Below are positions 61,040-61,959 of a DNA stretch of 64,000 nt, piece after piece. The translations under genes and the position numbers were made by a program. Numbering within the stretch: the stretch's first letter is position 1; the number at the start of each line of letters is the position of its first letter. The stretch lies in assembly GCF_055900595.2 (NCBI RefSeq), contig NZ_CM148325.1. One strand, 5' to 3'. The notes under the pieces are model-generated. The model ran no database searches. It had not been told where the DNA came from and worked only from the letters and a program-made list of their open reading frames with translations.

Positions 61040-61330
61040 AAGTATTTTATGAAGGAGCAACAGCATCGATTTTTATTTTAGAAAATAAATACGGCATACT
61101 CAACCTATTGGAGCCTGAACAATCCGGTGACTTCTGCGCTAATCGGGGACGTTTATAAGCACATATAATTGATATTATCGTCCTCCATCACAATTTCAGA
61201 AATGCACGTGTGATTTTTTTGCATCCGGCGTTTGGACTATGTGGAGTTCAAGAGTGGGAAAGTTACAAGAGGTTGAGGGGATAATTAAAGGGATGCTTAT
61301 GACATTAGATATCCGGATAGGTACGGATAT

Positions 61331-61390
61331 CGTTGTTATTAAATCTAGTTTGTTGTTATTAAATCTAGTTCGTTGTTATTAAATCTGGTT
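61331..61390. repeat. Three tandem 20-bp direct repeats (cgttgttattaaatctagtt; iteron-like)
   Basis: Read directly: cgttgttattaaatctagtt / tgttgttattaaatctagtt / cgttgttattaaatctggtt, head to tail, inside an AT-rich non-coding region. Confidence 0.85.
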
Positions 61391-61959
61391 TATACGTTAA
61401 GATGCAACTACAGCAGAAATTGCCACTGTTAATTTTTTCATCGTGAGCCCTTTTATTTGAACTATTATTTAAAAATGATGTCACTGCACTATAAATATTC
61501 ATCCAATCAATGAGATTATTTCAAGATGTAAGTTTTAGTTTCTCATTTAAATTGTGAAGTAGATCCCTATCTTTATCTGAACTGTTTCTATTGCACACAA
61601 TGCATGACTATTTTGTGAACGAATATAAATTTGGTAGTCAAATTATATTAAAGGTTGTTATTTATGATTGACTCATAATTTATTTATTTAATTTAAATAG
61701 CCTAGAAATAACCATGGAAATTATTTGCATGATGTTTGTTTGGATTTATTAATGTAATTGAGGTGGTTTTATTTAATACGCAATATAGCGCCGCTTGATA
61801 TTAGTTCTATTTTTTTTGCGTAAGATAGATGAGACAAACAGAGACGCATAATGGTTTGCAAGGCTCTAATACTTTGATGTTGAGGATGTGATGGGGCATG
61901 TACGGGGCATAGTACAATGATGTCCATGCTGGTGTAGATAATCTCCAGGCTTATCCGGT

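Follow-up and report, generated by a model that had tools for sequence, protein, structure and literature searches.

Stepwise prophage decay as the probable origin of an AT-rich spacer with a variable 20-bp tandem repeat in the fliE-yedK islet of Escherichia coli

A prophage-derived spacer between ybcM and an insertion sequence

In the 64,000-nucleotide stretch of contig NZ_CM148325.1 that was analysed here (hereafter, the window), which is E. coli chromosome, an emrE-ybcL-ybcM islet flanked by fliE and yedK contains an AT-rich spacer with three direct repeats of 20 bp. We consider it highly probable that this spacer is a non-functional mosaic, left as a DLP12-like remnant of a lambdoid prophage between fliE and yedK decayed step by step, and that the repeat is a slippage-type variable-number tandem repeat (VNTR). 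The parts of the spacer were each traced to a prophage gene or regulatory region already known, and the number of repeats varies among strains; the spacer is thus ordinary. Among the options raised in the first-pass annotation of this DNA, that of a foreign AT-rich fragment was borne out, in the form of lambdoid-prophage debris, whereas iterons, an origin remnant or regulator-binding repeats were not. The same annotation had expected an ordinary spacer to align over its full length and to carry an invariant number of repeats; the alignment was found, end to end with ordinary prophage-remnant DNA, yet the repeat number is variable.

At the loci that match the spacer in full length, the gene order in the RefSeq annotation is fliH-fliG-fliF, fliE, emrE, ybcL, ybcM, an unannotated spacer, an IS200/IS605 tnpA pseudogene, tnpB, yedK, yedF and yedE, which places the spacer in a small prophage-type gene islet between fliE and yedK. 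The 911-bp stretch is matched over at least 80% of its length in 1,034 of the 5,426 complete E. coli genomes. E. coli W and ETEC strains are among the best matches, which extend over all of it at 99.7-99.8% identity, and nearly all of the places found for it (5,652 of 5,655) are chromosomal. In a spread sample of matches, the partial ones are of three kinds. Those in Nissle 1917, APEC O1 and other strains correspond to window 61401-61950 (~97.8% identity) and lie beside an annotated porin gene; those in K-12 and many phages correspond to 61401-61779 (~82%) and lie beside nmpC, lc or ompD porins; the third kind is confined to 61040-61350, beside an IS200/IS605 tnpA. The Nissle 1917 locus, which is free of the insertion sequence (IS), consists of emrE-ybcL-ybcM, 501 bp, a gene on the minus strand for a 360-aa porin that shares 90% identity with Lc of phage PA-2, another 512 bp, and yedK.

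Two database records deserve mention. NZ_CP026085.1, a record under the name 'E. coli strain DH5alpha', includes the complete spacer of the fliE-yedK islet (1935703-1936613, 99.7% identity), in contrast to the sampled K-12 records, which match the spacer solely at the nmpC locus of DLP12; the label may be wrong, or the strain may not derive from K-12. HM037272.1, a plasmid attributed to 'Bacillus thuringiensis serovar chinensis CT-43', harbours an nmpC porin of the E. coli type together with its upstream region (58210-58587, 81.9% identity to the window), a segment that looks like contamination or misassembly of the record.

The GC content is 33.3% in 61040-61950 and 25.7% in the AT-rich core (61442-61779), compared with 40.6% in the adjoining emrE-ybcM islet (59000-61039) and 52.8% in the whole 64-kb window, in agreement with the initial impression that the spacer is richer in AT than its surroundings. 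With 25.7-33% GC against 52.8% and a prophage origin, it has the properties of AT-rich foreign DNA. The start originally assigned to the spacer, 61040, is retained; its end moves from 61950 to 61955, at the left end of the IS. As first stated, the ORF listing has none of 60 aa or more that is confined to the stretch: the sole one that touches it, a 111-aa ORF with a TTG start (61769-62104, minus strand), spans the IS boundary 61955/61956 and is spurious. The short ORF previously called from the ATG at 61308 does exist, as a pseudogene fragment, and this ATG is an internal Met codon of a 47-aa ORF (61239-61382), which is what remains of the C terminus of a Q antiterminator, in a frame altered by the repeat. 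Altogether, 61040-61955 holds no credible gene.

An Rfam E-value scan of 60800-63900 gave no match within the spacer and only sub-threshold matches at the 3' end of tnpB; promoter-like sites are rarer in the spacer than in shuffled sequences; and the 10-bp high-affinity H-NS motif was matched once in the region, with two mismatches. A terminator-like hairpin at 61308-61331 was rejected as a terminator, being merely two palindromic GATATC (Asp-Ile) codon pairs within the Q remnant that are present in K-12 as well. Close to the left end of the IS, an 11-bp imperfect tandem (GGGGCATGTAC GGGGCATAGTAC; 61893-61915), found also in Nissle and scored at 39 by Tandem Repeats Finder (TRF), has no evident significance.

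Remnants of ylcH and of a Q antiterminator gene

The segments of the spacer were mapped by pairwise blastn and direct reading against Nissle, the DLP12 prophage of K-12 and PA-2. By blastn, alignment and the K-12 annotation, the DNA downstream of ybcM (61040-61246, plus strand) is homologous to the DLP12 segment that comprises the spacer between ybcM and ylcH and the greater part of the latter gene. In particular, blastn aligns window 60900-61246 with positions 2328-2674 of the DLP12 locus (L005), that is, the 3' end of ybcM, the spacer and most of ylcH, at 83.6% identity. The ylcH-like ORF is degenerate in the window, with ATA in the place of the K-12 ATG start.

The next segment (61256-61350, plus strand), recognized by blastn and BLASTP, is a 3' fragment of a lambdoid Q antiterminator gene of the quuD type, comprising approximately the last 30 codons. 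It aligns with the 3' end of quuD (L005 4457-4553) at 82.5% DNA identity; the translated remnant is 63% identical to residues 98-127 of QuuD (BLASTP, E=3e-11), and the small ORF noted at the outset shares its frame. Recognizable as the end of the DLP12 gene is (82% identity at the DNA level and 63% at the protein level over the last ~30 codons), the window keeps the 3' fragment only, with its stop codon mutated and its end tandemly repeated. Furthermore, unlike quuD in DLP12, the fragment is fused to the ylcH-like DNA by a deletion of the nin region, the equivalent of L005 2675-4456.

A porin deletion and its orphaned 5' region

Shortly downstream of the repeat, the window departs from the Nissle arrangement. 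The interval 61392-61401, which holds the junction, was resolved by blastn and by reading two stretches of the Nissle locus (L003 5740-5800 and 6960-7010) against the window: 61392-61400 match what comes after the stop codon of Q in Nissle (ATACGTTAA), and the sequence from 61401 onward corresponds to L003 from 7001 onward, at 97.8% identity. Hence 1,222 bp (L003 5779-7000) are missing from the window; in Nissle, this segment comprises the porin 3' region and the whole porin gene past codon 14. No microhomology is visible at the junction 61400/61401. The identical junction, TACGTTAA joined to GATGCA, is present in the window, in the alleles with one, two, three and five copies of the repeat, and in EcPF18 (L004).

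The part of the Nissle locus that is missing in the window includes, at L003 5779-5958, a porin 3' region of ~190 bp with several GC-rich hairpins. In DLP12, the porin 3' region is where the IpeX sRNA has been described; with this region deleted, strains that carry the window's allele would lack that copy of IpeX.

What remains of the porin gene is a stub on the minus strand (61397-61441), identified by translation and alignment, which consists of the start and 14 signal-peptide codons of an NmpC/Lc-type porin (MKKLTVAISAVVAS) followed by TAA. The start of the stub is identical to that of the Nissle porin (MKKLTVAISAVAAS…); the TAA is fortuitous, having been made by the deletion junction. Contiguous with these codons, as alignments to Nissle, DLP12 and PA-2 show, is the AT-rich 5' untranslated and promoter region of the porin (61442-61779, minus strand), which is ~82% identical to K-12 DLP12, phage 434, PA-2 and other lambdoid phages, and 97.8% identical to the Nissle sequence upstream of the intact porin. 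Near-identity extends over the ~170 bp adjacent to the ATG; farther out, the sequences align more loosely. The CAP/CRP site given in the PA-2 record has a counterpart at 61553-61568 (TGTGAAGTAGATCCCT), a pattern match in which the TGTGA half-site is kept.

Thus, the window resembles the upstream regions of lc of PA-2 (GenBank J02580) and nmpC of DLP12 over 379 bp, at ~82% identity and inclusive of the start and signal-peptide codons, but differs from them in that the porin is gone after codon 14, leaving no porin gene to be driven, and in that the distal 176 bp (61780-61955) are specific to the islet. In addition, prophage lysis genes lie downstream of the porin loci of DLP12 and PA-2, whereas the window locus has none. 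The segment 61442-61779 is an orphan remnant and not a working lc/nmpC regulatory region.

The distal porin upstream spacer (61780-61955, minus strand) was delimited by genome and phage searches. It is present in 1,555 of the 5,426 complete E. coli genomes, at 1,563 places, that is, essentially once in each and always in the chromosome, and it had no match in the phage collection searched. In Nissle, the counterpart of this segment abuts the yedK stop codon.

An IS200/IS605 element at the right border

The islet is separated from yedK by an IS200/IS605-family element (61956-63703, plus strand), the limits of which were read by comparing the empty site in Nissle (cttatc/aaacagg) with the junctions in the window. 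Per the RefSeq annotation of identical loci, its tnpA (62018-62443, minus strand) is a pseudogene, whereas its tnpB (62451-63659, plus strand; 402 aa) is intact.

The element falls exactly in the yedK stop codon (61955-61956, 63699-63704). In Nissle, yedK ends, on the minus strand, in …CCT GTT TGA, and in the window, via the right end of the IS, in …CCT GTT TGT TGA; with this new terminus supplied by the IS, YedK gains a single C-terminal Cys (…LIQPVC). The left flank of the element reads GGCTTAT(C), which, presumably, fits a TTAT-type target located 5' of the IS left end. The sub-threshold Rfam matches at 63532-63715 (RAGATH-18, E=0.099; HgcC, E=0.19; sot0042, E=0.33) extend over the 3' terminus of the intact tnpB and the right end of the IS. 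It is at the tnpB 3' end or the right end of such an element that the guide RNA of TnpB (omega or re RNA) is expected.

Loss of the AT-rich part and the fate of the porin leader

Genomes of the EcPF18 type have the same porin-deletion junction and a single 20-bp unit but lack the equivalent of window 61412-62079, that is, the whole AT-rich part and the left end of the IS. This loss runs between two 8-bp copies of GCAGCTAC, one in the porin stub (61404-61411) and the other in tnpA (62072-62079). Approximately 16 of 60 evenly spaced rows belonged to this type, so that, by extrapolation, such genomes number roughly a thousand; the AT-rich DNA is therefore readily lost. Among the deletion-bearing strains, the AT-rich part is 97-99% conserved; this comparison is within the species and accordingly says little on selection either way.

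In EcPF18 itself, the junction of this second, widespread deletion allele is at L004 7320-7335. RefSeq calls an over-long tnpA CDS of 174 aa there, which reads into the Q-remnant DNA, and both tnpB and yedK are truncated as well.

An alternative to plain decay that we regard as improbable is that the orphan porin leader is still transcribed, yielding a short RNA, a peptide of 14 aa or a transcript that is antisense to the 3' end of ybcM as well as to the Q remnant, and plays a regulatory role, with the VNTR altering the 3' part of the transcript. The state of the leader is compatible with such activity: the leader hardly differs from the functional lc/nmpC genes in the ~170 bp above the ATG, in the ribosome-binding region and in the first 14 codons, and the counterpart of the PA-2 CAP site is retained. 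The stub codons ACA-GUG-GCA, also retained, would fit the RybB seed. The nmpC mRNA has been reported as a target of RybB in E. coli (PMC3333887). However, the conservation is explained by recency, the leader matches no Rfam family, no terminator-like site follows it on the minus strand, and the whole segment has been deleted in the EcPF18-type genomes that, by the above extrapolation, number roughly a thousand.

In its most specific form, this alternative would have the leader (61442-61600, minus strand) active, its short transcript carrying the nmpC region targeted by sRNAs and running antisense through the VNTR towards ybcM, and acting as a decoy for porin-targeting sRNAs or as an antisense modulator of ybcM, with the number of VNTR copies setting the length or stability of the RNA; this is very unlikely, although, if true, the active leader together with the VNTR would constitute a strain-variable regulatory switch. 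The chance that the orphan leader is transcribed with some effect at the RNA level is, more generally, slim. Under prophage decay, which remains the preferred explanation of this segment, the orphan porin promoter may still fire, and H-NS may coat it; no function is expected of it, because any transcript would meet the stub of 14 codons and then pseudogene DNA.

A 20-bp repeat with one to five copies

The array (61331-61391; no strand assigned) consists of three copies of a 20-bp unit, designated A', A and B, and was delineated by TRF, a second repeat search and comparison of alleles. TRF reported 61332-61391 with a period of 20, 3.0 copies, 92% matches, no indels and a score of 106; the second search placed the copies at 61330, 61350 and 61370, with 91-100% identity and start-to-start distances of 20 and 20. 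Both programs confirm the three head-to-tail 20-bp repeats initially noticed at 61331-61390. No further unit was found elsewhere in the 64-kb window when up to four mismatches were allowed.

The unit is made up of the final codons of the Q remnant (…DIVVIKS…). In Nissle, it is present in a single copy, …GAT ATC GTT GTT ATT AAA TCT AAT TGA, and so it is in DLP12 of K-12, where it encodes …DIVVNNSN followed by a stop.

A 200-bp query across the array identified 1,072 genomes with the deletion-type arrangement, and the lengths of the matches were about 160, 180, 200 and 240 bp. Four alleles were confirmed at the sequence level: one copy in strains 201609 and MB06233, two copies in O111:H8 7-32 9A, three copies in the window, W and ETEC6, and five copies in B1S11. 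The two-copy allele is the commonest, accounting for very roughly 60-70%, with three copies in about one-quarter and one and five copies in the minority, all these frequencies being estimates, based on bands of identity and on rows sampled at even spacing, rather than a full count. The comparison of copy number across strains, which had been recommended as a check, thus came out as variable (1, 2, 3 and 5) and not invariant.

The alleles with two, three and five copies are 0-3 SNPs apart in 914 bp, and up to 5 SNPs from the window. Such variation on near-identical haplotypes is that of a slippage-type VNTR, and the units, accordingly, follow one another head to tail without spacers (period 20, no indels). 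The one-copy alleles reside in more divergent haplotypes and have the Nissle base at both positions compared (61407 G, 61492 C), from which we infer the order of events, with the porin deletion occurring on a single-copy background and the expansion later. The added units are at the 5' end of the array, A'AB in the three-copy allele and A'A'A'AB in the five-copy allele, which is the pattern predicted by replication slippage or unequal exchange.

In its head-to-tail 20-bp units, polymorphic copy number and one-ended expansion, the array is similar to bacterial VNTR or minisatellite (MLVA) loci. The difference from the MLVA-type VNTRs is that the array in the window is located in pseudogene DNA, with no consequence of note for a reading frame. 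A full-text literature search with the sequence of the unit found no paper that mentions it; this VNTR is a previously unremarked instance of well-known kinds of sequence.

Could the repeats, then, be operators for the AraC-type YbcM, or for another factor, with the copy number tuning a neighbouring transcript? Proteins of the AraC family recognize direct repeats with a period of ~21 bp, and the array is only 290 bp downstream of ybcM. Nevertheless, we find this possibility highly doubtful: the repeats have no gene downstream, on either strand, that they could regulate, one-copy alleles exist, and the flanking region has been lost in many genomes. ChIP-exo analysis in K-12 yielded 12 YbcM sites, the strongest of which, with a signal/noise of 357, is upstream of ybcL at 570015-570048 (PMC8464067). 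The regulator-binding claim of the first-pass annotation is not supported, and a YbcM operator is unlikely: the 20-bp unit resembles neither this ybcL-upstream site, the strongest in that data set, nor its counterpart in the window. In the excerpt of the site list considered here, which is ordered by coordinate, the interval from 570048 to 1608878 contains no YbcM site (PMC8464067), so that none of these sites is at the end of quuD or at nmpC, the home of the homologue of the unit. These ChIP-exo data come from K-12, which has just a diverged, single-copy homologue of the unit.

A plasmid- or phage-type origin, intact or as a remnant, with the repeats as its iterons and the AT-rich DNA as the unwinding element, is practically untenable: although three direct 20-bp repeats adjoin a 26%-GC stretch, much as ~20-bp direct repeats adjoin AT-rich DNA in lambda ori and in the iteron arrays of theta plasmids, and although lambdoid phages use iterons beside an AT-rich region (lambda ori), the unit stems from the end of the Q gene and not from an O or rep gene; its number is not conserved (1, 2, 3 or 5 copies, and one in Nissle and in DLP12 of K-12); and no initiator (Rep/O) gene is adjacent, the neighbours being ybcM (AraC-type) and the IS200/IS605 tnpA'/tnpB. 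A scan for DnaA boxes found no cluster but only a single box with one mismatch (61933-61941), 540 bp from the repeats, and no homology to origins was detected in phages, searched in a distant mode and separately with the distal part, or in plasmids. In these searches, which had also been advised at the outset, the phage matches were limited to window 61401-61779, always beside lc, nmpC or ompD porin genes, and the plasmid matches to porin or ybcN contexts; the AT-rich DNA is wholly explained as a porin upstream region. Variation of the copy number, starting from a single-copy ancestor, fits the prediction of slippage and not a functional iteron array, and the origin proposed initially was rejected on these grounds taken together.

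A proposed history of the locus and its implications

Under the prophage-decay scenario, the fuller form of the locus is that of Nissle 1917, in which ybcM is followed by a fused ylcH'-'Q remnant, a convergent porin gene of the NmpC/Lc type, the 0.5-kb AT-rich upstream region of the latter, and yedK. In the lineage of the window, a single illegitimate deletion of 1,222 bp took the porin gene save the first 14 codons, and thereby orphaned the AT-rich regulatory region of the porin, which lies on the minus strand and now faces the end of the Q pseudogene. The IS200/IS605 element at the yedK end is present in this lineage and absent from Nissle. The 20-bp unit appears to have been single-copy at the time of the deletion and to have been duplicated afterwards, giving the present 1, 2, 3 and 5 copies. 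Changes in copy number would have occurred by replication slippage or unequal recombination, in a neutral VNTR rather than a protein-binding array, and the AT-richness of the spacer is, probably, that of the phage-origin promoter and leader of the porin.

In place of a candidate origin or iteron feature, the fliE-yedK hotspot thus has a fully traced record of prophage decay, which includes the nin-region deletion, the porin deletion, the IS200/IS605 insertion and the expansion of the repeat and, in other genomes, the loss of the AT-rich part through 8-bp microhomology. For annotation, the spacer can be labelled as remnants of Q and nmpC pseudogenes instead of being left blank. The biological weight of these findings is small; the 20-bp VNTR, with its one to five copies, and the three forms of the locus could serve as lineage or typing markers.
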